In this document: piece by piece, positions 1,353 to 46,500 of the stretch
Position numbering within the stretch: the stretch's first letter is position 1
Layout of the letters: every line of letters begins with the position of its first letter
Assembly: GCF_963676685.1 (NCBI RefSeq)
Contig: NC_092352.1
Span: forward strand, 23,188,001-23,252,000
DNA: 64,000 nucleotides
Origin: Mytilus edulis
Taxonomy: Eukaryota
Reading direction: 5' to 3'
Translations under genes and position numbers: made by a program
The notes under the pieces: model-generated
Told to the model about the DNA's origin: nothing
What the model saw: the letters and a program-made list of their open reading frames with translations, nothing else
The model's database searches: none

Positions 1353-1513
1353 ATTCCCTTCAGTATACCAATACATAACAGGAAAGAAAACAACAGCTTG
1401 TCTTTCTCAAATAATGACCGACAGACATTCCTGTAGATACTGTTTGTAAAATGATCGTTCAGGTTAAATATTCTTTCTTCCAGTACTTTTGATGGACTGC
1501 TGTTCATTATAGA
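1353..1513 (-). CDS. DNAH3: DNAH3 exon 57 (last in window)
   Basis: [18 protein letters not shown]. Confidence 0.95.
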
Positions 1514-4500
1514 CTGAAATAACCAAATTTAACATTTAACTTCAATAAACTCATTTCACAAATAGTAAAAATAAACTCAACAAATTCACAAATAGTAAAA
1601 TAAACTCAACAAATTCAATATTTTTGCATAAAAAAAGTGACAATAAAGCTTTCAAGAGCAAATTTATAGATTTATGCTGCTATTTACAATTTCTTTTACA
1701 CTTAATTCATAGTAGACCATGTCAATAGTGGAAACCTGAATGGGCTTCAATTCAAGTATCATCAACAATGATAGAAACTATATTACAAATGAGAAAAATA
1801 ATTGGAAAAAAGAGCCTACCTGAAGATATAGATTAATAAACTATGTCAATGAATACTGGTACATAGGTTCTATGTTGGCTAGATCTGAGATACAGAAGAA
1901 TAAAGCTTACCTGAAGGTATAGATAAATAAACCATGTCAATGAATACTGGTACATAGGTTCTATGTTGGCTAGATCTGAGATACAGAAGAATAAAGCTTA
2001 CCTGAAGGTATAGATAAATAAACCATGTCAATGAATACTGGTACATAGGTTCTATGTTGGCTAGATCTGAGATACAGAAGAATAAAGCTTACCTGAAGGT
2101 ATAGATAAATAAACCATGTCAATGAATACTGGTACATAGGTTCTATGTTGGCTAGATCTGAGATACAGAAGAATAAAGCTTACCTGAAGGTATAGATAAA
2201 TAAACCATGTCAATGAATACTGGTACATAGGTTCTATGTTGGCTAGATCTGAGATACAGAAGAATAAAGCTTACCTGAAGGTATAGATAAATAAACCATG
2301 TCAATGAATACTGGTACATAGGTTCTATGTTGGCTAGATCTGAGATACAGAAGAATAAAGCTTACCTGAAGGTATAGATAAATAAACCATGTCAATGAAT
2401 ACTGGTACATAGGTTCTATGTTGGCTAGATCTGAGATACAGAAGAATAAAGCTTACCTGAAGGTATAGATTAATAAACCATGTCAATGAATACTGGTACA
2501 TAGGTTCTATGTTGGCTAGATCTGAGATACAGAAGAATAAAGCTTACCTGAAGGTATAGATTAATAAACCATGTCAATGAATACTGGTACATAGGTTCTA
2601 TGTTGGCTAGATCTGAGATACAGAAGAATAAAGCTTACCTGAAGGTATAGATAAATAAACCATGTCAATGAATACTGGTACATAGGTTCTATGTTGGCTA
2701 GATCTGAGATACAGAAGAATAAAGCTTACCTGAAGGTATAGATTAATAAACTATGTCAATGAATACTGGTACATAGGTTCTATGTTGGCTAGATCTGAGA
2801 TACAGAAGAATAAAGCTTACCTGAAGGTATAGATTAATAAATCATGTCAATGAATACTGGTACATAGGTTCTATGTTGGCTAGATCTGAGATACAGAAGA
2901 ATAAAGCTTACCTGAAGGTATAGATTAATAAACCATGTCAATGAATACTGGTACATAGGTTCTATGTTGGCTAGATCTGAGATACAGAAGAAAAGAATAG
3001 AAGAATGGATGGCCACTGGTTTATATCCATTCCTTGTTTCATCAATTTCTTTCTCTGTCTCGGCTGCTATTTCTTGTTTAGCAGAAATTTCTTCAGACAG
3101 AACTTTAGAAGAAGATAAAATCTTGATGGCTGTCTCATCTTCTAGAATATTACCCTGAGTAAATATAAAACAAACAATTTATAAAAACTCTGGTGCATGT
3201 ATATAAACCAATCAAATCAGAGAATAGAAACTACTATATTACATGTTATACTTCACAAAATGTTCAGTTGATCCAAAGCAAGATATGGTGTTTCACAGAT
3301 GCAGGTCTTTTCTTTCAGCCAAAAATCCTTCAATATTAATGTTTCCCAATTTAAATCTACTCGTTCATAAAAAAATAATTTCTGCATTTGGTTACATTTA
3401 CAGGAGTAAAAAAATATGTTTTAGTCAAAATTACAATAAAAAGAAAAGTGGATAGATAGTATTACTCTAAAAGAATATGCATAAAAAAACAATTTTCAGT
3501 GGAGTAGTTAATAAATCTTTATAATTACCTCTGATGATGATAAAACTTCAAGAATCTTATCTTCAATTTCCTTGAGTTGTTTCTTATTTGAAGCACTTTC
3601 TATGATGAGTTGATTTTTCTTCTCTTCCAGTTCAGGTTTCTCTTTAGCAGCTACAATTCCTAACAACTGGTCTTCTAATCCTTGGGGTGTGATCATGAAG
3701 TTAACCAAACATACCTGTCAAATACACATTCAAATAATCATGTGGCTCACTGGTAAAAATTACAACATCAACAAAGTACTTCACAAAGCACTTTTCCAAT
3801 TCCAGCATTTTTTCTGTGTATAGGGTGCTATTTCCCCCTCTACTTTTAAGTTTGCCAAAGTGGTTATCTGTCAGGTCAGAAAACTCATCTTGTATCTTAA
3901 TATCAAATATCATAAGGGGAATTTCGTGTTGAAGTCGCAACTTTTAAGTCAGTGTGAATAAGTGGCTGACACATAATAATTAAAAAGAGTCTAATGCCGA
4001 AGACTGTATGTTGATTTTAAGTGTTGTTTTTTTTTGTTTCCCTTAATTGATGGGTAATCGACGTTAAGTAATTCTCAACAATTAATAAAACAAAGAACCA
4101 GGAGTAACACTGTGTAGCACTTCAACTTTAGAGCAGGACAGAAAAATAAATAAAAATCAATGTCAAAAATTGATTATGTTTCGACAAAAATATTGTCAAA
4201 ACAGATTCTTTTATTGCAATATGTGACATAATCAATAGTTTTTATTTGTTAATGCCACTTTCAGCAATAGTGTGCTTTTTAATGATGGTCATTTTTTATT
4301 GGTCAGGTATGCTGGAGTGTCTGGAGAGAATCTGACAATCCTAGTCAATTATGACATCTACCACATGCAGAATTTGAACCCACAACCTGAGAGTTGACTG
4401 GCTAGTGATATAGTAGTTTGACTACTTACACTGCTTGTCCACTGACCATCCTCAATAGTTTATTTTCTACTATATTACTTTACAAATAAACATGAAGTTG

Positions 4501-19500: not shown

Positions 19501-22500
19501 ACCTTTGCATCCTTTGGAATTATCAGTTTATTTTTATCTAATGTGTCCATCCATTCAATCCAGTTACCACTGGCTTTCTTCTCAAAGCAGAAATCATATA
19601 TTGAGGATCTCTCTGGAATCATGTTACTCTGAAATCATCAAACAAAAAATAGTTTTATTTATGCACTGAATTTTTAAATGTTTCCGCATAATTTATCAAC
19701 CATCATATAACTTATATTACAAATAAAATGGCAAACTACATAAATTATATGTTCTACATTAAAAAAAAATATTCAAATTATGTGTGAGAAATTTGATCTT
19801 GTGAAGCATGTCAAAACACTGCAATTTTACGCAAGAAAAGTAAAAAGAGAAATTCCAGAACATGATGCAGTAATTCTATATAGAGTGACGAGTTTAATTG
19901 GTGACAAACCTTGGTAATTTTATATAGAGTGACGAGTTTAATTGGTGACAAACCTTGGTAATTTATATAGAGTGACGAGTTTAATTGGTGACAAACCTTG
20001 GTAATTTTATATAGAGTGACGAGTTTAATTGGTGACAAACCTTGGTAATTTTATATAGAGTGACGAGTTTAATTGGTGACAAACCTTGGTAATTTTATAT
20101 AGAGTGACGGGTTTAATTGGTGACAAACCTTGGTAATTTTATATAGAGTGACGAGTTTAATTGGTGACAAACCTTGGTAATTTATATAGAGTGACGAGTT
20201 TAATTGGTGACAAACCTTGGTAATTTTATATAGAGTGACGAGTTTAATTGGTAACAAACCTTGGTCATTTTATATAGAGCGACGAGTTTAATTGGTGACA
20301 AACCTTGCTAATTTTATATAGAGTGACGACTTTAATTGGTGACAAACCTTGGTAATTTTATATAGAGTGACGAGTTTAATTGGTGACTAACCTTGGTAAT
20401 TTTATATAGAGTGACGGGTTTAATTGGTGACAAACCTTGGTAATTTTATATAGAGTGACGAGTTTAATTGGTGACAAACCTTGGTAATTTATATAGAGTG
20501 ACGAGTTTAATTGGTAACAAACCTTGGTAATTTTATATAATGTGACGAGTTTAATTGGTAACAAACCTTGGTAATTTTATATAGAGTGACGAGTTTAATT
20601 GGTGACAAACCTTGGTAATTTTATATAGAGTGACAAGTTTAATTGGTGACAAACCTTGGTAATTTTATATAGAGTGACGAGTTTAATTGGTGACAAACCT
20701 TGGTAATTTATATAGAGTGACGAGTTTAATTGGTGACAAACCTTGGTAATTTTATATAGAGTGACGAGTTTAATTGGTAACAAACCTTGGTCATTTTATA
20801 TAGAGTGACGAGTTTAATTGGTAACAAACCTTGGTCATTTTATATAGAGTGACGAGTTTAATTGGTGACAAACCTTGGTCATTTTATATAGAGTGACGAG
20901 TTTAATTGGTGACAAACCTTGGTCATTTTACATAGAGTGACGAGTTTAATTGGTGACAAACCTTGGTAATTTTATATAGAGTGACGAGTTCAATTGGTAA
21001 CAAACCTTGGTAATTTTATACAGAGTGACGAGTTTAATTGGTAACAAACCTTGGTAATTTTATATAGAGTGACGAGTTCGATTGGTAACAAACCTTGGTA
21101 ATTTTATATAGAGTGACGAGTTCGATTGGTGACAAACCTTGGTAATTTTATATAGAGTGACGAGTTTAATTGGTGACAAACCTTGGTAATTTTATATAGA
21201 GTGACGAGTTTAATTGGTGACAAACCTTGGTAATTTTATAGAGTGACGAGTTTAATTGGTAACAAACCTTGGTAATTTTATATAGAGTGAGGAGTTTAAT
21301 TGGTGACAAACCTTGGTAATTTTATATAGAGTGATGAGTTCGATTGGTGACAAACATTGGTAATTTTATATAGAGTGACGAGTTCGATTGGTGACAAACC
21401 TTGGTAATTTTATATAGAGTGACGAGTTCAATTGGTGACAAACCTTGGTCATTTTATATAGAGTGAGGAGTTTAATTGGTAACAAACCTTGGTAATTTTA
21501 TATAGAGTGACGAGTTTAATTGGTGACAAACCTTGGTCATTTTATATAGAGTGAGGAGTTTAATTGGTAACAAACCTTGGTCATTTTATATAGAATGACG
21601 AGTTTAATTGGTGACAAACCTTGGTAATTTTGATGCTAGAAATATTTTGCAAGTATAATGAGATTCCAGAACTTAAGGCAGTCAGTTTTTAGATTGTATT
21701 TTATTGTAAACAAACCTTTGTAATTTTGATTGACTTTGGTTTTGGATGATCAGGATCTACACCACTGACAATATTTCTGAAGAACGTATCAAACAGTTTA
21801 CGTCCATCATCAGCAACAGTTCCTCCTACAGTCCAGATCAAGGAGAACAAAAACAATCCTTGTAACCATAATGTTATCTGAAATATAAACCAGTTATTGT
21901 CATCTCTTAGTATAAATAATATAACAAATGACATTCTTCAGCAAAAACTTGAAGTAAGTTAATGCATAATCATCCAATTAATACTGTATAGAAATTTATT
22001 TTTAACTGCCATTATATTAGTTTTCCAAATTTAAAGTGTGAAATCCATACATATATGTTGATTTGTATTTCATATTTCCAATATTAATTTACATAGTGTG
22101 ATTTTCTTCTTCACTTTATTGCCAAACCAAGCAATGTTTTTTTTAATTGTGAGGATATTTGAGAGAAGTAGGAGCTACATAAATCACAATTTCCTCAACT
22201 TTATTTCCTGTTTTATTTAAGGAATGACTAATATTTGTTCTGTCTATGAAGAAATAACATAAAAAATGTGATGTACACTGAATAACCCACATAGAGTCTT
22301 ATTTCAAAGTGTGCACCACATTTTTTTATGTTATTTCCAATAGACAGTTAAATATTATAGTCATTCCTTATAATTTAATTCTAAATTCCATTTCAAGCCG
22401 TGAGCAAACTAGGAAAAAATGTTGATGACGTCACGGTTACAATTTTTTTTTACATCTACGAGCTGATAGACATAACACTGTCAGTCAATAAAAGACGTGT

Positions 22501-25500
22501 TACATCCAAAATTAAATTATTGAAATATAAACACAAATGAACACTGAAATATTTCTTATATAAAACTGTACCTGTTGTTTAGTAAGTATATCTGTTTGTT
22601 CTTCTTCTCCATCACTTTTTTCCATTTTGACACATGTATCTTTAATCTCGTCCAATAGACATGTATACAGCCTCATCAAAGACTGAACCAGATGCATGTC
22701 TGATGTCGTCATAAACACTTTACATTTCTTATGAATAAAGTATAAGCATGGGTCAATTAACCACTCAAACAAGTCATTCACTAGGTCTTTATCCTCCTGT
22801 GATAAGTTATGGGGAAGTTCATACATCATGTACGATTCTTTAAATGGTCTCCAGCCCAGCTGGTGGGGTTCTAAGTAGATCATACCACATCTACTGACGG
22901 TAGCAGGGGAAGCCTGTTCTAAATCGGCAGGCTCAAATATCAGGTTCATAACATTAGACATCTGAATGATTTCACCACTCATCAAACACAGCTGTAAAAA
23001 AACACAATACAGTCATTTTAGATATCTCACTTCATAATAACACCAGCAATTCATTTAACATTGTCTATAAAAAGACTATCAATATAACAACTGTCATTAT
23101 CTGCTATCCTTTATTTTTCACGGTCTCTTTCCTTATTGTCATAAGATTGTGACTTTAATGTGCAGTTCTTGGATATAGAACAGTTTGAAATTTTCTAAAT
23201 TAAATCCTATTTTTAATACATTTTTATACATGATAGTGAAGAATGTTTTTTGTAAAAAATAAATAGAAATTTATAAACCTTTTTGTTGTCATCCAATACA
23301 GTGTTCATGTTTTCTATCCACACAGCATCCACAGGTCCATCAAATAGAATCCACTTCCTGTCATCATTTGGATTACTGGCATATTCTCTGAATGTATTAG
23401 CAAGTACACCTGGAACATAAAAATATGTCTTATCACTGTTATGATCATCTAAAATTTGCAATATTAGATAATTTTTAATCATTTTACTTTTAAATAGTTG
23501 CATTACAAATATCTGCACAAATGCTATAAAAACAGGTACAACATTTCATGTTTAGTTTATGCTGTAAAGTTTGAGTAAAAAAGTCAATAAAAACAAAGAA
23601 CTCTTCTTTATTTTTTTTGGTGCCTCAACTTATCATTTAACTCTTATCACACAAATGTATGATCAAATCCTGGTTAAAAATTCAAGTTCCAAGCAGAATA
23701 TCAAACATATGCAAAATTACAATTAAATTCAATAAATATAATACCATCAGTCCATTCATGAGATACGGGATCAAAACATCCATACAGCTGGCCCATGGTG
23801 ATAGCTTTAGGGTTGATTATTCTGTATATTGTCTTAAACTCAGGGTACTGTCCTGAGGCATGTAGATCTGAGAGGGCATCGGCTAACACTTGCCATCCCT
23901 GTGTTTTACCACCTAATGGTTCTCCTACTATCATCAAACCATGCCGTACCAAAATCATCTCATATACCTGTCAAATACATTATTCATTTCATTAATTTTC
24001 AATTGTGAAAACACTGAAAAGACTCTGAACCTGTATAGAAAACTTACATTTTTATGTGTATTATTGTATCAGGACCTAAGATAAGTCAATGGAATTTCAT
24101 AAGCTAACATATCATATCTATTAATGGATATTGGATTCCAATTGTGGTATAAATGAATATATTACATAGCAACATTATAATTCACTCAAAAAATTTGATT
24201 TGCAACATTTTAGCATATTGCATGAGTGCAATTATAGCTTCAAATTATCGACATCATCTGAACGAATAATTTATACAGTTTATCAAGCTTCTTTCTCTAT
24301 ACAATACATGGGTTATTGCATAAATATTGTTAATTTTTAACAATCAATCTCTCAGATCTTAGTTTATACTTAATTAAACAGTTAATCACTAAAATAACTC
24401 TTAAAAAATGTCATCAAAAGTTACAGTAAATAATTATAACAATTATCACCTGAATAATTTTATCCAAGAACCAAGGATGTGGTTGTAGATGCCTCTTGAC
24501 TGTATTGTCTTTAAGCGCCTCCATGAATAAACCATAATCAGGCTTAGGGCATTCCACACCAGGGAACAGATCTGAAATAATACCCTCAAACAGAGGTACG
24601 TCCTGGGCTAAGAATTTAGGAAGATTGACATCCATGATGGCTTTCAGCAGAAGGACTGGTTCCTCTTCTTCTAAGTACTTGAGTTTGAGGTTACCAGCAG
24701 CAGTCAATACAGATTTAACAGCTCTCATTCCATAATCATAATGGTGCTGTGATGACAATTGTTCAGAACACAATGTGTATACTGCTACAATTTTGTTTGC
24801 CAAACTGAAATCGAAAGTTGAATTAAAAATAAAGAATAATGAAGATTTCAACCATTCTGTTAAGAAAATATCATAAAATCTATCATTTCATCATCCATAA
24901 TTTCTCTTTAGTAAAACAGCTTATTGGACATAACACATGGCTTAACTTAATTCACAATGTTAGTTTTCTATGTTATAATTTTTCAAATCTTGTCATCCTG
25001 GGGCCTTTAATAGCTTACAATATAGTATGTGTAATGCTCATTGTTGAAGGCCATACAGAGACCTGTAATTGTTTACACTCTTGTCCATGGGTCTTTGGTG
25101 GATAGATTTAAAAAATACAAGAATGTGTCCATAGTACATGGATGCCCCATCCCCACTATCATTTTCTATGTTCAGTGGACCGTGAAATTTGGGTAAAACC
25201 CTAATTTGACATTAAAATTAGAAAGATCATATCATAGGGAACATGTGTACTTAGTTTAAAGTTGATTGAACTTCAACTTCATCAAAAACTACCTCGACCA
25301 ACAACTTTAAGCCAAAAACTTTAACCTGAAGCCGAACAGATGGATGGACGATGAACGGACGCATGAACCAGAAAACAAAATGTCCATAAATGGGGCATAA
25401 AAATATGTTTCACACATCTTTGAAAATCAAGCTGAAATGTAGATAAAAAGCACTATCCATGGTAAATATCTATATCTTACCTTCTGGCATCTACAAATCC

Positions 25501-28500
25501 CATAGAGTACAATGAGATCTCCCCAATCATACCATAATCTGGCACCATCATAGCTACTGTTCTGAATAATACCTGAAATAGATTGATTCAATATTGTTAT
25601 ATATAATAATTTGACTTATGATATGTATCTCTTAAATATAGTTTTATATTTCTTTCAGTGAAATAAAAAAGTATTTTTATGAAATGTTACAGATGATTTT
25701 TAACACTGCAAAACTATCAGTAATCAACATCTTTTTCATATTTATCAAAGATTACATAAGGAACAAGTTGTCTTTGGTTCTATCTATCAATAAGTTTCTA
25801 TGGTTACAGAATTTGGGTAATTTTTATGGAAGATTCGTTTGTTGTCTCTTTCATCTTTAATTACAACTTGTCTAAACTTGGATGATTTAGTACTTATTGA
25901 CTACTAGATACTTTTGTGGTTCTTCTAATGTTTAAATACAAACCTTAAGGTTATCAGGTAACTCCTGTCGGCCAGCATAACCAGGGTTCATGGTAATAAA
26001 ACATGTACAGGAAGGATTAAGAGCTAATTCTGTCCCTTCAAATATAAATCTCTTTAGTCCTGCTGCTACAGCCTGTTGGATACTAAGAATTTGTTGAGCC
26101 ACAACAGACAATACTTCCAACTCTATACGATTAAACTCATCAAAACATGCCCATGCACCGGCCTGGGCTAAACCTTTGAAGAATTTACCCATTGCCTTGT
26201 AATCCAAACCATCTGAACAGTTGAATACCACACACTGAAATACAAACAGATAGGAATTAGGGTATCATCTAAAAAAAATTATTTACACGAATTAAACAAA
26301 GAAAACACTTTAGCTTCTAAATAAAATTTCAGTTGTAATAATCTTTGAAGTATATTAATCTCTAGAAAAATTTAAAAAAAAACCTTAACTAACTAAAAGT
26401 TTCCTTAATTACACTATACTTGTTCTATATTATGTTTCACAATTTTAAAATGCTGAAAAAAACAAATCTGTTAAGAAAAAATTAACTTGGAACTTTGAAA
26501 TAGAAGTTATGAGATAACTTTACCTGTTTGGCAACAGCTTTGGCTAAATCTTTACAAGTCTCTGTCTTCCCTGTACCTGCTGGACCTTCAGGGGCTCCAC
26601 CAAGGAACAACTTCAGAGCTCCCATTAAAGTTCTGAAAACACCACAATTGTTTTGTTACAAAAAAGGTAGTTAGCTTTCTTGTTTGAATTGATTTATGTG
26701 GGTGCCTTAATAGCTGATTCTACTGCATTTGTTTTTCTCATTGTTAAAGGACGAAACAGTGGCCTCAAATTGCTTACTACCACTTCATTTATACTCTGGT
26801 GGATAGTTGTCTAATCAGTAATCAATTTCATACAATGTTTAGTATAAACATATTTATTTGCATAAACACAAATTGTGTAAGGCACAAGTCAAACAGATAA
26901 TGTTTAATGTCAGAAACTAACACAATTTCTGAATATTACTAAGGAACCATTACCTGGAAACTGTAGGAGTTTTGCATTCATAAACCTCCTAATGTGTTAG
27001 AATAACATACAGCTGCTTTTTCAACAATACTAGAGATCAGAACACAGACAAAAATCAAGATTTATAAGTCATTAAAATATTCAACTTACTCACAGAAAAA
27101 AGCATGATACCAGAAATCAGGACATCAACTAAATGAAAAGATATTGATCATGATAGGAATCCAGAATTACCTGTAACACCTGTCTGTCAGTGGTGTAATG
27201 ACCAAACGTCCTGAGTTACCCAGATACTCATAACCATATTTGATATCTGTTGTTATCATTCTAACAATCACATCATCTTCCCAGTAATAACGTAACTGAG
27301 CTAGCCAATCAAAATCAAAGGGACTGCATACATTGTCTTTAGCCATCTGGGCAACAACGTCACGAGCTGAAAAATAGTAATAAATCTTTTTATTTTTCAA
27401 GTTAATACATCTTTTGTTTGATTTTTGTAGGTACCTATATGTTGAAGTTTAAATATTTTGTTTTATTGGGTTGCTGTTTCAATGTCAGAAAAGTGTTAAA
27501 ATGTAAGAAATTTCAAATGCGAGCATACCTTCCCGTCTGATAATTGAAGGGAACACTACATTTCAATATTAATTGTAAACCTTTCATTCCAGCAGTGTAT
27601 CTTTCATATTAACCATGCCCATATTATGTTTATAAAACATCTATTAAGAAAAAAATGTTCATTTCTCAGCAAGTGAATTGTATAAACCCATGAACCCTTT
27701 AAATTAACATACTAGCTGTATTTATATGAATATTTTGCCTCTTTGACATGCATTTATGTGACACAACCCTCATATCGTAAACCAAATTAACATATTTTTG
27801 ATAAATCATCACATGAAAACCTACCATGTACATCAATTACAGTCAAAGCTCCCAGGGTAACTCTGATTCCAGCATCTAGTTTACCTCTCACCAGTTGGAC
27901 AATCTGGTCGATCTGGCCGTTACACTTTAAATGGTATTTCTGTGAAAGAGAATATACTTTTTAATAAAAACAGGAATTATAATTTTCTACTGTTGTATAT
28001 ATCTACAAACTCTGTAACATTAGGTTTAAATCAAGGAGCTTGTTTGCTCATGTTAAAAGCTGAATTTTTTCCTTGTTTTTAATTTAACAAATCAACAACA
28101 GCATAACAAAGTGCATAACTTTAAATTGATCAAGATCCTTAACACATTATGTTACTAGAAATAAATATTTCAAAGCACAAACCTTTACTCCATCTGGTTC
28201 CTTCATTGATTCTGTTACTTCTGATGTCCACCATATAGAGCCTACACAGATGGCAACTTGTCCTGGCCAGTCTACTACCCATTGATTACGAGGTGTTGTA
28301 CTGTAGGCAGCGTTAGAGTCCATTATAACTTTACGTAAACTGCTCATCATAACATCTTCTACTTGTAACAACCATTTCTCTACCATACCCTGTCATGGAA
28401 ACAGATACATAAGTTTACACATGATATAAAAAAATGACACCAAAAATTATTGGATAAAAAAAAAATAAGTTATTAAATTATCTATCTATATGTTATGTGG

Positions 28501-31500
28501 GAGGCAGTTCCAGTAACTAAAATTACATTTGTATATTATGCATGATGAAAAATGCAAAACTTCCAGAAACTTACATTTGCTTTTGCAGGTATGATCTTTG
28601 TTGAGAAAGGTACAGTTTCTTTTTCTGCTGAGACCATGCCTACAATTTCCTGGTTTTCTGTGAATTCCAGTTTACTGATACCTTCAAAACATTTTTTCAA
28701 ATGAGGCTGCACACGCATTGGATCTTTTGTCTCAGACAAGATTTCTAATAACTCATCGTTTGACAAGAAGAAAAATCTGAAAGACAAAGAAGACATTATC
28801 TGATAAATCAATTCAACTTATTTATAAAGAAGAAAATCCAATCCTACTTCTAAAATTGTCTCCTACAAGATTTATAAAGTTTCTTACATGTGATCATTAA
28901 GAAAAGCTGATCAATAGACTTGGTATGTTGCTCATCAAATAATTATGTAGTGTAGTGTATTGTAAATTCAGAAATTATTGCAATGTTTTTATTATTGCGA
29001 AAAATGCAACAGGGTTATAATCACAATAATTTAAAATCACATTTTGATTTTTTTTTATATGAATTAAACAGGATTTTTCTCACTATAGCAAAAAATAAAG
29101 TTGCCAAAATCGCAATAATAAATGCACACATTAATTTCTGAATTTACAGTAATCAGTTGACCTATAATCAGTTGACCAAAAAATACCTCTAGTTCTAAGA
29201 TCACAAGAGACTAAGAAAAATGGGTACAACTGGTGTTCTCCAACAGATTTTAAAATTCATATATATTATTACTTTTAGTTTCAAATACTGTTATACAAGA
29301 TTTTAAATGTCATAGATAAAGGAAGATGTAGTATGAGTGCCAATGAAACAACTCTCCATCCAAGTCACATTCTATAAAAGTAAACCATTATAGGTCAAGG
29401 TACGGTCTTCAACACTAGTATACATATACATAAAATACAGTAGCTTATATTCAGTTTTTTTCTGACCATACAAAAACACCCAGGTTATCTTACCTTGGAA
29501 AGTACAATCTCTTTTTCTCTAGATATGCATTCAATCCTTTCTGGATTTCATCTAACAGGTTGTTAGCATCTCTCAGACGTCCCAACATGTTATTCTGAGA
29601 TGTAGCTACCAGACAGTTAGGATCTTTGATGGCCTCAGTCATGATGTCTCTCCATACACTGTCTACAATGCCAAACTTACGACCCTCTTCAGGCATCTGA
29701 GCTAAAATGTCCTCTGAACTGAAGATAGGTTCCAAATACAACCATGTGGCTTGACACTGTAATATCATACAATTAATGTTATGGCTATCTTGTCTTCATA
29801 TAAAGGTTATTTCAGAAATTACACTATCATTATATAGGTTAGCTATCATGAGGAAATAAATATTTTTTAAAGATTTCGATTACTATTGATTCATTTATTT
29901 TCCTGGCTATCTATTTTAGTGGACTAAAGAAGAAAAAAATATTTACATAGATATTTGTATACAAAAGTCTGCATACAAGATTACAGAAAATATGTTCTTA
30001 GCTAAACAGTTAACTTGTGGTTCAACTGTACCCATGAAATCCACAAAAAAAATGGTATTCTTGGAATAATAATGAATTCATAGTATAAGTTAAGTGTTTC
30101 TTTTGTCACATCTGAAACTAAATCAGTACCATAAAACTATAAGCATTAACATATGTATATAAACATATCTATCAAAACTTAAAAAGGAAGTTTTAAAGGA
30201 AGTCAAGTTTGAACTGAGTTCTCATCTTTACCTTGAGCCATTCATCCAGGATGTCTTGCATCAGTACCAACTTTTCTTCCCACTCTTTCATCTCAACTTC
30301 AAATGGTTTAATGAATGGAGAACCTCTCATGGTCTGAGCTTTCACAACATGATCATCTAACAGTACTTGAATGTCATCTGGTGCAGCCATAATACTGATT
30401 CCCTGAAAATGAAATAATTAGGCCTCAGTATGTCATTGCTGATATAAATTTGTCTTAAAAAATAATTTCATTCCTTTTGATTTTAACCATTTGTTATGCT
30501 TTCCTTTACCCTGTCAATTCTTTTCCAAAAGGGACAATGACTTAAAAATATTATCAAATGTTTGACGTTCTATGTTTGAAAAATGTTCAGACTATAGATA
30601 ATGTGATTTACTGTTTCTCTGTATGGAATCAACTCAAAGGCCATGTCTTTCCATTCAATCTTCATCTTCTCCAAAGCTTTTTCTAGAGAGAACTCCTTTG
30701 CTGCAGATGCTCCTATGTCTTCCAATCTGAAAATAACCAGTTCTTAGTTAAGATCTTTACTTCAAAATTTCATTTACTCATATCTTTAAGTGAAGATATG
30801 TGTATCAACATTGTTCATGGTGGTTATATTTGTCTAGTAACTCCATTGTAATTGTTTCAATATTTTGCAAGTAAAAAGATCTTCAGCACTATTTACCAAT
30901 CATCAAACTTTCTATGTGTTCTTAACATTTGATTTATTGAGTTTTCTTCAGTTCGTTGCCTAACATAAAGAACATGGGGTGATTTAAGATGTTTTCATTC
31001 TGTTTTTCCTGTATTTCGCATAATTCCTCAATTACATTTTATCTTTCTGAATCTTTATCTTTGAATTTTCATAACCTATATGACACATGATGTTAATACT
31101 TACTGTGCCAGGAATTTAGTGAGACCAAACTCTAACATATTACTGAGTGAAGTTCCATCAACTGGTCTGATATCTGTCCCAACTATTTCACTCATCTGTC
31201 AAAAAATTTCAATACATAAGTTAGGCCATTTAATAATGCGTCATAATATATGGAGGAGCTAATATAATTCTTACTCACATTCAAATCTTTCATTGCATTT
31301 CATTCATACAGTGAATAAAGGTTGAGGCAAACTAATTTATTAAAGGACTAAAGTTCCAACTACTAAAGATGTTGATTATGACAAAATGTCAATGGTAGAT
31401 TACTTGTTATTGCTTTGAGTCACAAAAAACTTTTTCAACTCCTTTATAAAATATTGATCAAATCATCCAATTTGTATGGCCACTTTTTACCACTAAAAAC

Positions 31501-34500
31501 ATGTTGATAAATCGACAAATAGCATTCATCTCTGTCATGCAGATGCTTAATTAATTTGGCCCTAAATTTGGACAGACAAACAAACGATGCACCCTTTTTC
31601 CTTTACTAATGAAAAAGGCACTGAGGGCATCCAATTAAGGAAATATATCATTAGTAATTAATAAATTGATAAACTAAACCCACCCTCTGCCAATGTCTCT
31701 CCCTAATTCCAGGGTTACAGATTGTGGATAATATTGGTAGATGTTGTTTAAACTTGTCAATTTTCCCTCTGACATTATCAGCTATTCTACGTGGTCCAGC
31801 TTGATCATTGAATGTCTTTGTTAACTTGTACATCTGTCTCCACATGTCTCCAACATCATTCTCTATTTCTTCAGCATTCAAATCCTGGAATGCTCCTGAA
31901 ACATATTTAATTCATAAAATTTTACATTTTACAAAATCAGATAAAAACAAAACAAAACACAACATGCTATTTACCTGTGTCATTAAAATAATAAACCATC
32001 CTTATTTCAAACTATTTATGATCAATTGCAACTTGGTCAAGATATTTATACATTATTTTAACACAACAATGCTTACGCAAAGTGTGGGGTCAAGGTTCAA
32101 TCCTGTCAGGTTGAACCAAACACTTGAAAATTTGTTCCAACTTCTTTTCCACTATCTAAGGCATGCAGTATTAAGAATATGATCAAATATAAAAAAGAAG
32201 ATGTGGTATGATTGCCAATGAGACAACTATCCACAAAAGACCAAAATTAACAACTATAGGTCACCATACAGCCTTCAACAATGAGCAAAGCCTATACCGC
32301 ATAGTCAGCTATAAAAAGCCCCGATAAGACAATGTAAAACAATTCAAACGAGAAAACTAACGGCCTTATTTATACAAAGACTTGTTTACTATAGTCAGAA
32401 TAATGTGTCAGCTCAACACATTTCTTCCTATAGACTTTAACTTTGTGTACAAGCATATTAAAATTAAGGTAAAGCATGTCCATCTAGTACAAAGCAGGAG
32501 TTATTCCATAGTTTTCTAAATGGTACTTTATGTTATGACAACTTGCCATTAAGCCATTTCTCATGTTTCTGGTGGAAGGAATAAGCAGTATTCCATATTT
32601 TTTTTTTTATGGTTCTCAACAGTTTTTATATTGTTCTTAATGTTCTAACAACCTACCATTAAGCCATTTCTCATGTTTCTGGTGGAAGGAATAAGCAGTA
32701 TTCCATAATTTTTTTTTTTTATGGTTCTCAACAGTTTTTATATTGTTCTTAATGTTCTAACAACCTACCATTAAGCCATTTCTCATGTTTCTGGTGGAAG
32801 GAATAAGCAGTATTCCATATTTTTTTTTTTTTATGGTTCTCAACAGTTTTTATATTGTTCTTAATGTTCTAACAACCTACCATTAAGCCATTTCTCATGT
32901 TTCTGGTGGAAGGAATAAGCAGTATTCCATAATTTTTTTTATGGTTCTCAACAGTTTTTATATTGTTCTTAATGTTCTAACAACCTACCATTAAGCCATT
33001 TCTCATGTTTCTGGTGGAAGGAATAAGCAGTATTCCATAATTTTTTTTATGGTTCTCAACAGTTTTTATATTGTTCTTAATGTTCTAACAACTTACCATT
33101 AAGCCATTTCTCATGTTTCTGGTGGAAGGAATAAGCAGTATTCCATAGTTTTTCATATGGTTCTTTCATGGTGAACATCTGCTGTAACTGAGGGAAGAAA
33201 CTTTGTTCCCATTCTAGTAATGTCTCCTCATCATTGATACCCTCTAGTTCATCACGTGCTGCTACTAAGTTTGTATCTAGTGTAGCCAACTGTTCAGTGT
33301 TGTTTCTCATGGCATCTTCACTCAGGAACTAAAAAATAGGTAAGTATATTAATTTAATTGAACTACAATCTGCATCTGAGTAAGGTTAAACATTTCACAG
33401 GGTTTAATAATATACCCTTAAAAATTTCTCATATACAGATTCAAATGTTAACATCAGGTCATGAGAAATCCATTCAAATATTGCAATATTTATCTAAAAT
33501 ATTTGTATTGCACGGGTTTACTTTTATGAAACAACAGTATATTGAGTATAATTGTGAAATTAAGTAAAATCTAGCATATAGCAATTAACATCACCAGTAG
33601 TATTACCCTGTTCACACAATCTTTACAAATTCAACCAGATGCTATTTGAACAAATTTCATTCACTCTTGTCTATTAAAAAGTCAAACTTACTTCTTTCTT
33701 CTTGAAAGATTCCACTTCTTTCATCATATCATTCAATTTCTCCTCAAACTTGGCAACCCTGCTCTTAAGCTCATCTTCAATGGAATCTCTCTTACTAAGG
33801 ATAATCTTCTGAGCTATCTCAAACACATTCTTAATATGATCTGGCCAGTGGAATACATGTGTGTTCAACTTCTGGTCTTCAGCTGTTAAAAGATATTTAA
33901 GTTGTTACATATAGCATCAATTAGTTTTTTTTTCTACTACCATCTTTTAGCTCTATATGATTATGAATTATTAAGCTAACAAAAAATATTTTAAAAATTT
34001 ATCATACCTTGTCAAAATAACATTAAGTTAAACAAAGATTGGAAATCTGTATCATTATACAAACATGTTTCTTTTGTAATAACAAGTATGCTTTTTTTAC
34101 ATAAATAAGGTCATTAGTTTTCTTGTTTGAATTGTTTTACATTGTCATTTTGGGGTCTTTTTATAACTATGCGGTATGGGCTTTGCTCATTGTTGAAGGC
34201 CGTAGGGTGACCTATAGTTGATAATTTCTGTGTCATTTTGGTCTCTTGTGGAGAGTTGTCTCATTTGCAATCATACCACATCTTCTTTTTTTATATGTTA
34301 TATTTCTCTCCTATTTTGGAAGACATATAGATTACTTCAGAAATGAAGTATCAAGTCCAAATGACCTTAAGAGGAAGATAACTTACTTGGATAGATAGCA
34401 TAATCCAACAGAAACATGAGCCGATCCTTGGCATCCTCTATATCATCTTTTAGTTTATACACTGTCACCTCCTGGGACTAAAAGGGTAAATAAAATAAAC

Positions 34501-37500: not shown

Positions 37501-40500
37501 AGACTTTTGTTAAAATTGCATTACCACCTGATAGGACTAAGAAAAGTTTTTTTCTGTGTATATTTTAGCTGAAGACAAGCTTAAATTTGGTCTTATCAAT
37601 GAACACTAATGATCATCTTTAAACACTTTATTATAAACATTTTTATATTTTTTTTAGAGCTCTGTTAAAAATTACCTAAAATGGAATAATAGAAACAGCT
37701 ATATAACCAAAGTTGTATTCTATGGTGATAAATTTATCAAATATCCTTACTTTATGAGTTGCAAAGAATTTGAGGAAGTCAGCGAGAGAATTGATGACCA
37801 TTCCTCTCAGTTGTATAGACATCAGACCTGCAACACAGGCAAAGAATTCCTCAACAAGTTCTGTGTTGTCATCATCATCTGGAGGCACAAGGTCTTCCCA
37901 TAATTCATTGTGTTCAACAAATAACTTGGCACAGTTTGGAATCCAGCTAAAAAAGTGGGAAAAGAGTTTAGCAAAGTCAAAGTTTTCATTTTTTTAACAG
38001 AAATCAAATAAATGTTTAATGCATTTTTTGTACTTATCTATAAAATAAAAAAAAAACAGTTAGACTTGGCTTTTCCTTTTTGTATATTTATATATATATA
38101 TATATAAAAAGATTTGGGGTAAACCATTTATAAGACTGCTATCAGAAAATACATAGTACTTCACAATGTATATCTAGATAAAACCATAATGATAATAAAT
38201 GATTATATAATATGTATTGGTGGTAAAATCGTAAATAATTAATTAAGGTGGTATGGGTGTCTTCCTCCATCTTGGATTGTAAAAAACAGAGAATCAAAGG
38301 TCCAGATTTTCCATCAAGTTAGCAAAATTTGATGCAGGAATGCAGATGTTTAATGTACATTTTCATTTAAAAGTACCAATTTATAAGAATATAACTTCTA
38401 AATATTGATATTTTTGCAAATGTTAATTATTTTTGGTTGGTTTTTTTTTTTTTTTTTTTTAAATTGGCATTTTAAGGGGAGGTAACTTTAAAAAAGTGCA
38501 TTTTCTGAAGGATTCTGTATGGAATTTTCCTATTTTGTATTTTAGCCGGAAAAAACTTACGGTGACCCTATCTTTTCTTTCGATATTCTCAAAGCAGTGT
38601 CTGAAAGCTATCTTTTCCTGAAGTATTTAACAATTCTATCATTTTGTTTAGTTTCTAATCACAAAATGGTGTTTTTTCCTGTATAATCCATACAAAATGT
38701 GTCATTTTGTCCCGTCCTGTAGCTTGAGAAAATGCGCGGTGACCTATCATTTTTATTATATTTTTCAACATGTATCAATAGATACAACGTTTTGGCAAAG
38801 TATGAACAAATTCTATCATTTTTATTTTAGACTCCCATACCACCTTAAACACAAGTTTTTTCTAAGATAAATACTATCCTACCTTTTTCTCAGAACTTCA
38901 TGTGCTTCCCAACATTGTTTCTTAACCAAAGATTCAAACTCTGAGGGTAATAAAGGTAAATCTGCTTCATTTAGTTCTTTCAGGTTTACAAATCTCAATT
39001 CATTAAATCTGTAAAAAGTCAAATGGTTGTTAAAACAGGATAATGAATTAGTTAATGGATTAGTCATTTTTATTTCTAACATCCAGTTCGAAAAAATTTG
39101 AATTTATAGTACAAAATGTACCTTCATATAATAACAAATGATAGATTAATTTTTAATATAAGCTTAACTGTAACTATTTTCTTCCTTACTTTCCACTTGA
39201 TGATCAGATAAATCACAGGAATTTCAGTTTCTAGTTCAATTCCATGTTTGTTTGCATTAAAATATAAAGAATTACATCAGCTTTTCTTTTATACAATAAC
39301 AATCTCAACATAAACCAACAAATAGTGACTCCTTAACTCTTTCATGAATGCTTAGGCTACAGTACATCAATAGTCAGACTATCCTAAATATGTCTACATA
39401 GAAAATAATGAACTTAAAAATCAAACAAAAACTTACTCATCAAACCAAATATCCTGCAGTTTTAACATTATTGGATTTGTGATAAACAGATGGATCCTGT
39501 TCGTGTCTTTCATGTTTCTATAGCTATCATGCCATGGAACTGGAGCTCTAATGACTCTATGAATATAATAAAGAAACATTCAATACAAAGATTTGTGTTT
39601 ACATAATTTGCTTTGTACATCCATCTAAAATTTCATTATAGATTAAAAATACACAAAAGTTATCTTAAAAATGAAATTAACTTAATCCGCTAAAAGTGAA
39701 ATACATTTAGACTAACTTTATTTTTATCATAAAAAGGGGAAAGTTTGATCAGAATAAACCCCTATAATATATCTTATCCTGCATCAGGTCAATTCAATAC
39801 ATTTGTCATTTTAAGAAACTTTTACAGTATGAGTATTTCTCATTGTTGACCTGGATAGTTATCTAATTGGCATCCATACCACATCTTATTATTTTTATAT
39901 CTCAAACAAACACATCTTATGAATAAGCACGAAAAAAACTTTCAAATCATAAATATTTAGCCAAAACATCCTATACTTTATTTACCTGTGAGGGAAAGGC
40001 TTTGGTGTCCATGCAATGTGCAGTCTTTCTTTTTCTGTTGGATCTTTTAAAATGTAGTCAACTGAAATTATCAATAATTCTTATTTGAAATAAATGCAAA
40101 ACACAACATTAAAGTGACACAGGCTTCAAGGCTTCCTGTTCGTAATATACTGCAATAGATCCAGTATACCGAAAGAATGTACAATGAATTGGTACTAAAT
40201 AAAAGTTCATTTCTAGTGTACATAAGAACCAAACATATTTGAAATTGTGTTCATAAGAAGGCTGCAAATATTTACTTTTGTATATCAGATGCATGCATTC
40301 GGGTGTATCATGAAATAGACAAATCAAGTGTTCCTGGGAGAAAGCTTTCTATATAACTCTAAGGTTTTGGATTACCTTTAACGCAAATTCAGTATAAAGT
40401 TTTTATTTCCAGTATTCCACAGAAAATATAAAAATAATTTCAAACATGATTTCTATATGGTCAAATAATTAATGATAACAAAATTAACAATAATTTTACC

Positions 40501-43500
40501 AATGGTTTTCCTCAAACTGAACTCATAATCCTTCTGCACTTCCTCTGTCAGGTCTCGTACCATAGGTGTTAGGGAGGTACTAGATAAGAGTGGTGGAGGG
40601 ACTAGAGATCTGATATTCTTCATTGTGTCAGGATGAGGCGCAGCTAACATCTGCCTCTTGACACCTTTCTGTATGTAATAGTAATATCTCTGTAAAAAAC
40701 AAAACATTCAAAATAAAGTCTTGTGTATGCAATGGTAATATCTCTATAAAAAAACAAAAAACTCATTACAAAAATAGAAGTATTAATATATATTTTATTT
40801 CAATCTTTATACTATATTGTCACAGAAATCAAATGTAAGTAACTTGTTTTGTTTCCTTTCAAAAACAGGGCATTTTTTTATTTATTGAACTAGGTCTTAT
40901 AAAATGATAGTGAACAGATCTAAATCTGTTAAAAACATTTAAAAAATTCTGGACAATAGAAATGATAATATTATGTATAATTAAAACTTACTTCCTCGTC
41001 TCTGCTAGAGGGTTCTCCTGTTTCTGTTATTTCATGATCCTCAAAAGCTCTCATTATGTCTAGTTGTTCATTAGGTGTGAATGGTCTACTAGGTGGTATC
41101 TCTGTTCCAATGTCTGGTAACACATCATGGCCATTCACTCCATTTGTTCCATTAACACCATTGGCAGTCCTATAATCCAAACAATATCATAGCATTTATA
41201 TTGAGAAAAGGTTAACAAAATGTACATTAGGCCATCTAAAAAAGTGGTCTCATACTGATAAATTATGTGCATTTCCAAGAACAATTAGAATTTAATTTTT
41301 TAAATGATATCATCTATAGTAATTTTACATTACTTTATTTTAATACAAAAATGTTTGCTGAAAATACTGCTTTTTGTTATAAACTTATATACCAACAATT
41401 AAGCTGGGTAAAAAAATTGTGAACAGAATAGTTTTCACAACTTTGGATGGTTCTTATATGAAAAAAAACTTACCCATTAAATGTAGGACTTCTTGGTGAT
41501 TTTCTTGGACTTTTCTTTTTTAATACTGAAAATTTATAATAGAAAATACTTCATTATCAAATGAATTCATAGCAGTTCTCTTTCAACTCTACCAAACCCC
41601 CTTGTTTAGAACATAAGTATCTTTGTATGAATGATGCAGGAGATTGTTCTTTAAAGTCTTTTTTTTTAACACAAAATTTTGCTTTTACTTAAAATATCAA
41701 GGCAAATGTTAAAAATATATATCTGATTTAGATAGGTAAATTTTGGATTCTTAATACAAAAATCTCACGATTATATAATTCTCCTGTATTCTGAATAGGT
41801 TTTTTTGAAATTATCTCTAAGCACAGCACACAAAACAAGCACTTGCTACCACCACCTTTCAAAACTCTTCAATAATATACTAGGGATTAAGCAATCTAAC
41901 TGAATACAATATTTCCCTCTTTATAAGCTTTAAATAAAGTACTACTATTTAAAATAGCCATACATTGAATTATATAAATCTTCCTTCCATCAGTATTTTT
42001 TTTAATCTAAACAAATAATAACAATACAATTTATGTGAAAATAAAATGCTTTTTTTATAAAATGCCCTCTGGTGGAAGTTTAGTAAAAACACAGTTCCTC
42101 TCGATAGAGGAAACAAAAGTTGTAAATAAGATGTTCAACGTTTTCCAATCAGAGACAATTTCATTCATATATAGCAAATAAACACAATAGCTACTACACC
42201 ACACGCTTCACACAACTATATCTACATTTTACCATCATCAATAGGTGGCAGTTCTTTCTTGGTATAAATACCAGAATAAATCTGATCTTCCAGGTCTGAA
42301 ATCCAGTCAATTCAGTTAAAACATCTCAATTAATTTTTAGTACAGTAGTAGGTCAAATGTTAATTATAGAAAATCATTAATGATAATTCCATACCTTAAG
42401 ATTCAGGAACCTTTTATCTCATTATATCTGCTACATAGTATATCTTATATTATTTTCATATAAAGTTAAATTATACACAATTAATTTCTAATCTCATGAT
42501 CAATAAACTTACATTTTGTTTTTTGTCTTTGCAGTTTGGGAAGATCTTTCATCTTTAAATCACATGCTGACGGGGTATAATTATTAGCAATTGATTCACT
42601 TGGTGTCCGATGATATCGCTCTTCTTTGAATGGAGCAGCTAGAGTCCATGAGGTACCCTTCATTATCGGTGGATGCTCACTGTTCCGCAAAACAATCTAT
42701 ACACAAGAAAGAAACAATGACTGTTAATAACAGAATTCCAACTTGGGTGAAAAGAATAGACAAATACTCATGCATTATAAATGCAAAGTGTCAAATTAAT
42801 GTAAAAAGGGTGGATATGTAAAAATGTCTAAACTGTCTCAGCTATGAAAATTTAGGATTTCTACTTATTGAAATCCAAAACATAAGAACACATATGTTTC
42901 ACAGTAATCATGGTAAATCACTGTCTTAAAGGACATATATCAGTAACCATGAATATAGCCATGGAATAAAAACTTGTCAGAGACAAATCTCTTGGCTCCA
43001 TTTAATCAACAAAGTAGATTTCCACGAAAGCAATGCAATAAAAAGAATGTTAATTCATGTTCCCCTTTTATCATTATCATTTTTTTTTTTAAATTAATCA
43101 ACCCTTTATTTTCATTCCCCTTTTCCTACTCAAACATGTTTTTCTTCAAACATTGTCTTAACTCTTAATTATTAAACTGACTCTTTTTTTATTACTTTTT
43201 TGAAAACTTAAAAAGTACATAAGTGAGTCAAATTAATGATAAACCTGCTTTATCTTTTTGCATTTCTCAACCCAGTCATACCACATAATTGGATGTTTCT
43301 ATTGACTTTTAGTGTGTATTTTGCCATATTAATGTAATATTTCCGAAATATGATACCTTGTATAGATCTGATTGTTCTTTGGAATGTGTAGGAAGAGGTG
43401 GCAAGCCAGGTAACCCTCTGGTCTTACTGCAGCTCTGCACTGGAGTTTCAACATACTGAAATTAAAATAATAGTCTAATAAATTCTTTATATATTAAATA

Positions 43501-46500
43501 AAACAGCATGTATTTTAAGACAATTACAATGCAGTAATATAAAAATAAGAAGATTTGGTATAATGTGACGTGTGGTATGTAACACATACATGTATATCTA
43601 GTTATTAATGTCCACTTTATGATAGGTCAGACTTGGCAAAAACATGTGTTTTATGAGTATTGCCCAGCCCAGTGTCTGACAGTCCATTCCTAAAAACATA
43701 GACTTGCACTAACTACTTTAAAACAAAGATCAACGTCAAATAGTACTGTGTAAAAATAAACAATTTTCTTTCACAGGAGTCTGGAGTGAAGTTGAGATCA
43801 GATTTCAAAGGAAAACAACAAACTATAGGAAAAATTTTGAAGGTTTCAAAAATTAAACAACCCACTTTTCTCAACATTGGTTTCAGATTTGATACATCAC
43901 CTAATGTTAAAAAGGCAGACTGTCCTTTTTGGGGGTAAAACTTCAAATTATTTTGAAATCAGTAAAATAAGCTATTAGAATTAATTCATTTATAGTACAG
44001 AACCTTTCTTTTTTCCAAATGAATGAACCATACAAGATTATGAGCATATAATTTTGTACACTTTACCATGTGTACTGGATATTTTGGTTAACATATCACC
44101 TAAATAATTTTTTTACTCAATTTTTAATCAAACAATTCCAAAACCCAAATACATATCTTTTATTAAATGAGGCCAAAGTGTCATACTTAAAGTATTACAT
44201 ATAAAAAATTATGAAACTGGCAAAATATCCTGATTGGAAATCAATAACTTAACAAGCATGTTTTATAAGATACAAATTAAATGTACCATGAATGCCAAGT
44301 AAATGCCGGTATTGAAAAGAAGGATTTGGAAAAGTGCCAAAACATTTCAATTGTTATTTTATCTTATTTGGATTTCTTTCAGTAACCAGATTTCACAATA
44401 AACCAAATAAAATATTTACATGCACTGAGTTTATATACTATTAACTGTTACCTAACACATTATAATTCTTAAATTATAAATGAGCAATGATTATACACTT
44501 TGAAAACTAACATGCTTATTTATGCTTTATCTAAACATGTATATAGATTCCTCTTATAACGCTGTTTATTTAAATTTTACACTGTCAACATAAATTTATA
44601 ACTGGGGTAGACTCAAGCTTTTATTTTACATACTTGTGTTGTTTGTTGAGAAAAAGAATAAATAAATTACTTGGATTATTGAAAATATATCCCCTTTGAA
44701 AATCTTCTAGCCCTAATTATAGCTTATAATTATATGTTAATTACATTATTGAACCAAAATATTGAAAAGAGTTATACTCCTGCTCAACTTTATAAACATT
44801 ATATATAACAGAGTGGTTTATTTTTATATTTCTAATTCCATCTTCATGCCTACTACATTGTATATCATGTACTGTGCTACAACTCTAGATTCTACTGATG
44901 AGGAAATGTAACACTGAAATTTATGGGTTCAGTCTTAAGTTGGCCTAGTGGTCTAGAGGGATGGACACAATCCAGGTGTTGTAATTGGCCACTGCCTTCC
45001 TTATTGTTTATTCTGTTTATTACTGCAGCATAAATTTGTAATCAGGCCATATATCAGGTTTCCTCATTCTAATTGTTTCACATTCTATCTATTCTATATT
45101 CACCCTCATTTATGGTAGATGTTTAACTCATTGTTGAAGGCCCTAGAGTGATTCTTTTAAATTGTTCACATCTTTGTTCTATGGACTTTATCATGCCTAT
45201 GTTCTGTTGTCTCACTGACATCACATTACATAGCCAGTCTTCTCACTGGTAATCTTTAAGCCTGAGTCATTGAGATACAGAACAGTGAAGCATACATGTA
45301 TATATATTATAAAGAAAACGAGAATTCCAGCATAGATAATATAGATGAAGAGAAGAGAAGCATATATCATATAGATACTTCAGACGTGAAGTGTACATAA
45401 TATAGATGATATTCTTAAATAATGGTTCAGACCAAATTTGATTTAATATTGGCCCCATAATTAAATAATAAATCCTGGTGGCCATCTTGAACAGTAAATC
45501 AGCAGCAAAGTAGCAACACTTAATCAGTACCTCATGTCAGAGGAACATTTATGACATTTTAAGTTTCATTCCAAGCAGTGGTTTTCTAAAAAGAAGACAT
45601 GTGTATGTATTTTCTATAGCCATAGGGTCATATGTTAAACCAAGTCCCCCGCTGGTGGCCATCTTCGATGATGGATCAGCTACAAAGTAACAACACTTGG
45701 TCAGCACCACATAAGGAACATTAATGCAATATTTGGTTTCATTCCATACAGTGGTTCTCTAAAAGAAGACATTTGTATGTATTTCCCATAGGGTCTTATG
45801 TTTCAACTAAGTCCCCTGTTAGCAGCCATCTTGGATGATGGATCGGCTATAAAGTAACAAAACTTGGTCAACACCTCATAAGGAACATTCATGCCGTATC
45901 TGGTTTCATTCCATTCAGTAGTTCTCTAAAAGAAAACATTTCTATGTATTTCTTATGTATCCTATATTTAACTAAGTTCCCTGCAGGTGGTCATCTTGAA
46001 TGATGGATCAGTTACAAAGTAACAACACTTGGTCAGCACCTCATAAGGAACATTCATGCTGTATTTAGTTCCATTCCATTCAGTGGTTCTCTAAAAGAAG
46101 ACATTTCTATGTATTTCACATAGGGTCCTATGTTAAACTAAGTCCCCTGCTGGCGGCCATCTTGGATGATGGATTGGCTTCAAAGTAACTACACTTGGTC
46201 AGCACCTCATTAGGAACATTCATACCATACATATTTGGTGTCATTCCATTCAGTGGTTCTCTAGGAGAAGTTTTAAATTAAAAAAAGTTAACAACGAGAG
46301 ATGCCAAGTGATGAGAAAAACTCACTTGGCCCTTTTTTTTTTTTTGAGCTTGTACTTGAGGTTGATTGTATTAAGGAATTTGGTAGGTAATTTCGTAAAA
46401 CAGATTCTGAATTTATAAAAGATTTCTTATACAGCTCTGTTTTGACTTTAGGAACTTGCAGTTTTTAGCAGGACGCAATACTCAAACAATATTGGTTTAT

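Follow-up and report, generated by a model that had tools for sequence, protein, structure and literature searches.

Why does a mussel dynein gene carry the end of one of its coding exons, with the 5' splice site attached, thirteen times in a row, and do the extra splice sites regulate the gene or are they tolerated as intron DNA? We addressed this question in a 64,000-nucleotide stretch of the Mytilus edulis genome (NC_092352.1, positions 23,188,001 to 23,252,000; hereafter the window), using unit alignment, splice-site scores, DNA and RNA sequencing runs and a survey of other dynein loci.

An array of exon ends in a dynein gene

The array lies on the minus strand (Table 1), where Tandem Repeats Finder detects 13.0 copies of a 91-bp unit with 98% matches. 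Each unit takes up the last 27 codons of a coding exon and a junction, and the original prediction, which was made from the letters alone, had described both this repeated exon end and the donor in every unit correctly. Donors recur at 2911 - 91i, where i counts the units from zero; in the alignment of units, the first 12 read CAG/GTAAGC and the outermost (1819) reads CAG/GTAGGC, in agreement with what had been noted before. The 12 silent downstream donors each consist of CAG/GT with a pyrimidine-rich tract upstream. A tryptophan codon is replaced by a stop in units 2, 3 and 13 (TGA, TAG and TAG, respectively), stops that the original prediction had omitted. Unit 13, at the edge, is the most diverged, consistent with escape from homogenisation, and has probably retained the original donor and start of the intron; in DNA run X14 this unit reads TGG, so its stop is not fixed. 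The N/Y variant follows the order NNNYNNYYYYYYN along the 13 units, which amounts to 5 runs (P = 0.12, runs test). Such blocks of variants, which had been taken to argue for unequal crossover, are compatible with it but do not reach significance.

The exon that ends in the array has DNAH3 as its best match among solved structures (E 4.5e-38) and as its best named homologue, and by sequence similarity the host gene is a DNAH3-like inner-arm dynein heavy chain, a cilia motor. The exon numbers 56 and 57 are those of the original prediction; 33 introns were mapped here, in the C-terminal part of the gene. Genome matches to the 91-bp unit are confined to this place and to the exons of dynein paralogues, ruling out a dispersed or transposon-derived unit, and the array is absent from L013, a dynein paralogue that has an intron at this position. 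Other repeats were seen in the window as well. A MITE-like element lies in the next intron (90-832; inverted ends of 34 nt, 91% complementary and separated by 675 nt) and also has subterminal palindromic repeats, a 29-bp doublet stands at 1555-1617, just upstream of the acceptor at 1514, and a 44-bp repeat runs through 40 copies at 19870-21631. A diverged 165-bp repeat occupies 45498-46270; similar periods occur in many introns, so that it is likely a dispersed satellite or element.

Table 1. Positions of the array, its host exons and comparable arrays (window coordinates unless a locus is named)
Feature	Position	Strand	Details
Next coding exon (exon 57 of the original prediction)	1353..1513	-	Reads and exon mapping
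Array-bearing intron, 1398 nt	1514..2911	-	Exon mapping; joint CT..AC in reads
Tandem array	1813..2992	-	13 × 91 bp: 81 nt of exon end and 10 nt of junction
Outermost unit (13), most diverged	1813..1900	-	TAG for TGG, TAT for TAC, GTAGGC donor
Predicted 65-nt pseudo-exon, unit 2 (repeated in units 3-13)	2821..2885	-	Begins ATC TAG; no joint listed in the three RNA runs
First, used donor CAG/GTAAGC (G of GT at 2911)	2903..2914	-	32 reads from 2912 into next exon; PWM 10.9
Coding exon (exon 56 of the original prediction), 243 nt	2912..3154	-	Last 81 nt are unit 1; homology, RNA depth and joints
Second, independent exon-end/donor array, same gene	32510..33164	-	About 108-112 bp × 6
Near twin array	L025-L029 joined, 43367-44666 (C1 near 98.72 Mb)	+	Dynein survey
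Very long array at a donor, 4.5 kb (74-bp unit, about 60 copies), following a dynein exon	L065-L069 joined, 24647-29203 (C5 near 10.11 Mb)	+	
Acceptor-side 28-bp array (× 29)	L020-L024 joined, 40099-41320 (C14 near 50.50 Mb)	+	Dynein survey

An array whose units are 98% alike, and whose exact count of 13 is spanned by no contig, could in principle be a repeat over-expanded during assembly, although we give this artefact next to no chance. Five DNA runs (X1, X4, X5, X11 and X14) and three RNA runs (X21, X22 and X24) were counted, with X2, X3, X6-X10, X12, X13, X15-X20 and X23 outside the counts; reads were mapped onto two single-unit stretches, so no read spans the whole array. The array junction is present in 5/5 DNA runs, which come from 5 studies under 4 organism labels (the source sample is possibly X1): contigs of X1, X4, X5 and X11 contain the 91-base back-joint, with 25-37 letters on the short side in the latter three, and X14 shows the letters of the junction and elevated depth, although none of its records formally bridges the joint. 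Depth on the unit is raised in all five, with unit/flank ratios of 10.2, 11.4, 7.6, 4.7 and 7.6; contig depth is no copy number, and the differing ratios suggest variation in length. The unit junction also occurs in raw RNA reads of X22, and the unit variants are heterogeneous. The junctions in the DNA runs and in X22 RNA refute an artefact as regards the presence of the array, and they answer the doubt, voiced with the original prediction, that it might be missing from raw reads. The array is common to 4 organism labels, which are close enough for read placement at 90%.

Donor use in RNA and the stop-bearing alternatives

Splicing is regular at the authentic first donor. Across the three RNA runs, 92 reads join this donor to the next exon (47 joints to 1513 in X21, 13 joints to 1513 in X24 and 32 loose ends from 2912 into the next exon in X22), versus 3 read-through reads from 2 starts. 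In X21 and X24, 61 loose ends are listed at the start of the unit, all of which read native exon, and no 91-base back-joint is listed; carriage of the array is assumed for these two runs because they have the same species label as X14. In X22, 3 sense reads (2 starts) cross the unit junction and this animal therefore carries the array, X22 being the one run in which carriage is seen in RNA. Further X22 loose ends at 3551, 3582, 3635 and 3682 are located in the upstream exon, probably come from paralogous dyneins and were excluded from the counts.

The three X22 reads would represent about 1-2% of molecules if they derive from unspliced arrays of 5-13 units, and up to 9% if all derive from donor 2. 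The upstream intron (374 nt) has zero depth in X22, where about 1-3 reads would be expected from nascent RNA, so low-level mis-splicing is possible; a depth of 2 in the next intron of X21 counts for a nascent origin of the read-through reads. A small leak from the array that is degraded by NMD is possible, since products removed by this pathway do not show in steady-state RNA.

Splice sites were scored with donor and acceptor PWMs built from 29 other introns of the same gene. The first 12 donors score 10.9, at or above 29/29 real donors, and the last scores 8.0; all 12 extra donors retain GT, and 11 of them match the first in strength. As had been predicted, the first is the sole donor with an open frame and the only one that would give full-length dynein, and read-through to any later donor meets a stop, at 2834-2836, behind which donors 2-13 all lie. 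By length alone, donors 4, 7, 10 and 13 would preserve the frame, but they are past this stop. In-frame alternative products were rejected, as every product tested contains a stop except one 36-nt in-frame piece, the only stop-free alternative, which starts from an AG scoring -0.6.

According to the original prediction, an AG inside each unit defines a 65-nt poison pseudo-exon, and the number of these pieces tunes NMD-coupled dynein expression, a proposal that we consider highly improbable. The 65-nt stretch does open on an immediate stop, as claimed, and its inclusion is predicted to terminate the protein prematurely; its AG scores 7.5 and is paired with a strong donor, copy number seems to vary (contig depth ratios) and steady-state RNA is poor in NMD targets. 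However, no joint of the 65-nt piece is listed in 3/3 RNA runs (threshold of 3 reads from 2 starts; no NMD block), and the inclusion in some transcripts that characterises a poison exon was not found in these runs. Nor is the AG with its pyrimidine tract a creation of the unit junction, as had been thought: it scores 7.5 at 2885 (junction copy) versus 7.4 at 2976, inside the native exon, and is therefore inherited. Its use within the native exon is not listed in any RNA run, and 21 reads in X22 take the normal acceptor. The AG follows a strong donor at a distance of 26 nt, with a further AG between the two; scores as high are reached by 33/957 intronic AGs, and 29 other introns of the same gene contain 7 comparable decoy pseudo-exons.

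A second candidate acceptor, missed in the original prediction, is the CAG at the end of each unit, which scores 9.7-11.3 and exceeds the modest true acceptor at 1514 (PWM 4.9); a YTNAY motif (TTGAC) stands 27 nt upstream of each such AG. Donor 1 could then be spliced to a unit-end CAG, regenerating CAG/GTAAG, so that a stack of recursive splice sites would ratchet the array out and occasional use of the next donor would include a 91-nt stop-bearing RS-exon and lead to NMD. Each donor-to-donor interval is a 91-nt GT...AG, an acceptor is directly followed by a donor and, further downstream, by an RS-exon donor, and the 3 X22 reads carry the sequence expected from RS-exon inclusion. The layout matches ratchet points with cryptic RS-exons, which in the accessible portion of PMC8605326 likewise have AG/GT, followed by a short exon that is out of frame and by another donor. 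Even so, recursive splicing of the array appears unlikely. The ratchet points described there are solitary, conserved sites that mostly lie in long introns, whereas the array is young and multi-copy in an intron of 1.4 kb (1398 nt); recursive sites in shorter introns are also on record (PMC10156609, accessible portion). AG/GT comes free with a duplicated donor, 14/29 real donors having it, and it is found in only 8/16 other independent arrays, so arrays are tolerated without ratcheting. No X22 joint is listed in which the native exon is skipped by way of the AG at its end, and the PWM rests on 29 introns. A recursive-splicing intermediate would have the sequence of an unspliced junction, and read depth in the intron is close to zero; ratcheting would leave the mature mRNA unchanged, which therefore yields no positive evidence.

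Boundary minisatellites in other genes

The locus is very probably an exon-intron boundary minisatellite, with tandem units that span the boundary and repeat the splice site, a first donor that is used in mRNA reads and extra copies that are likely near-neutral intron DNA. Several known repeats behave in a similar way. In human F7, intron 7 contains a 37-bp VNTR whose first unit likewise spans the boundary and whose identical downstream donors are functional yet silent, the most upstream being used (PMC1557585, accessible portion). The F7 unit has 4 exonic bases versus 81 here and 5-9 copies versus 13, and it was tested by mutagenesis, whereas the mussel locus was followed by RNA reads only. 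In the same portion of that source, LMNB2 (100 bp × 10-15) and PDGF (81 bp × 16-18) share with the mussel array its architecture, unit size, copy number and use of the first donor only; the CBS IVS13 and 6-16 minisatellites, in contrast, have two further donors in use, compared with at most a small leak here. Amphioxus 'mirages' (Adh3 and the globins BflGb6 and BflGb9; PMC3087553, accessible portion) are also invertebrate, boundary-spanning and length-variable, with edge units that escape homogenisation and splicing that is undisturbed. They concern few loci and both boundaries, whereas our count in 15 dynein loci places such repeats at about 5-8% of donors, with donors favoured 3:1 over acceptors.

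The array probably arose by local tandem duplication across the donor and expanded by unequal crossover or slippage, the outer unit being left out of homogenisation. By analogy with F7, the first donor would most likely win through exon definition or first-come choice of the 5' splice site. Rare read-through RNA would be unspliced or mis-spliced, bear a stop and be cleared by NMD, with no tuned switch. The array is thus real and likely a harmless example of a known repeat type rather than a demonstrated regulator. No title or abstract start in the open-access literature matched a mussel report of such arrays or copy-number-tuned NMD at donor VNTRs, and the accessible portion of PMC10078293 contains nothing on reiterated donors.

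Donor-spanning repeats across dynein loci

In the second array of the same gene (Table 1), the first donor, GTAAGT (33096), is stronger than the four GTAGGT donors and the last, GCAAGT. We surveyed 50 kb around the motor domain at 15 other dynein loci (L015-L089), with exons placed by tblastn and arrays called at a period of at least 25 and at least 2.5 copies. Among the 84 arrays found, 27 touch coding blocks by eye: 18 at donors, 6 at acceptors and 3 that were dropped (two without a splice-site span and one part of a neighbouring array). Donor-spanning arrays occur at 18/371 coding blocks (16 independent), while random placement of 82 arrays, a crude null, predicts 6.4 each at donors and acceptors (P = 0.0003 for at least 16). 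In a 24-mer test allowing 3 mismatches, repeats were detected at 18/315 donors, 6/340 acceptors and 363/14,492 intron positions (Fisher p = 0.011 for donor versus acceptor and 0.001 for donor versus intron); with 5 mismatches, the counts were 24/315, 8/340 and 462/14,492. Overall, repeat rates were 5.7-7.6% for donors, 1.8-2.4% for acceptors and 2.5-3.5% for intron positions, for loci that are all dyneins and splice sites picked by matrix near alignment ends rather than from RNA.

The near twin, in another dynein, repeats a 100-bp unit 13 times (97% alike) and joins an exon end to an AAG/GTTTGT donor. The 28-bp array on C14 is followed by a partial exon-start copy, a second short array and the full exon, a layout that is possibly an intermediate of intron gain or a broken exon. 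A single decayed donor array with a 36-bp unit is common to three close DNAH7-like copies, two on C4 (near 52.12 and 53.11 Mb) and one on C14 (near 50.49 Mb). The C4 copies gave 13 and 21 coding blocks versus 33 on C14 and are perhaps partial duplicates.

Older arrays lose the GT, which is retained in 1/3 and 1/5 later copies, a decay that looks neutral. The special regulatory role assigned to the array in the original prediction is not borne out, given that such arrays occur at about 1 in 20 dynein exon ends and that old ones lose GT. At the same time, donor-spanning repeats are ~2.3-fold over the intronic background, which counts against a boundary minisatellite as the whole account; pure random duplication does not explain this excess. 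Its causes may include mutation bias, purging of acceptor copies and selection for extra U1 sites. One far-reaching version would have 12 working recursive sites ratchet the array out and leak 91-nt stop-bearing RS-exons to NMD, with copy number setting the ciliary dynein dose, in mussel genomes where donor arrays would be made or kept at two to three times the frequency of repeats at acceptors or within introns; taken as a whole, we find it quite improbable. We found no description of a 5' splice-site repeat bias in the open-access literature.

As a single locus the array matters little, repeating what F7 and the lancelet mirages already show; its value is as a natural system for studying first-come donor choice in an invertebrate whose wild populations likely carry alleles of different length. 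The wider lead is the excess of donors over acceptors, which calls for a genome-wide count: about 1 in 13-20 dynein donors carries such a repeat, three times the acceptor rate and about twice the intronic background. Should the excess hold genome-wide, for which the chances are about even, it would indicate that mutation or selection is biased at 5' splice sites, and errors are to be expected at such exon ends in gene models and in short-read assemblies.
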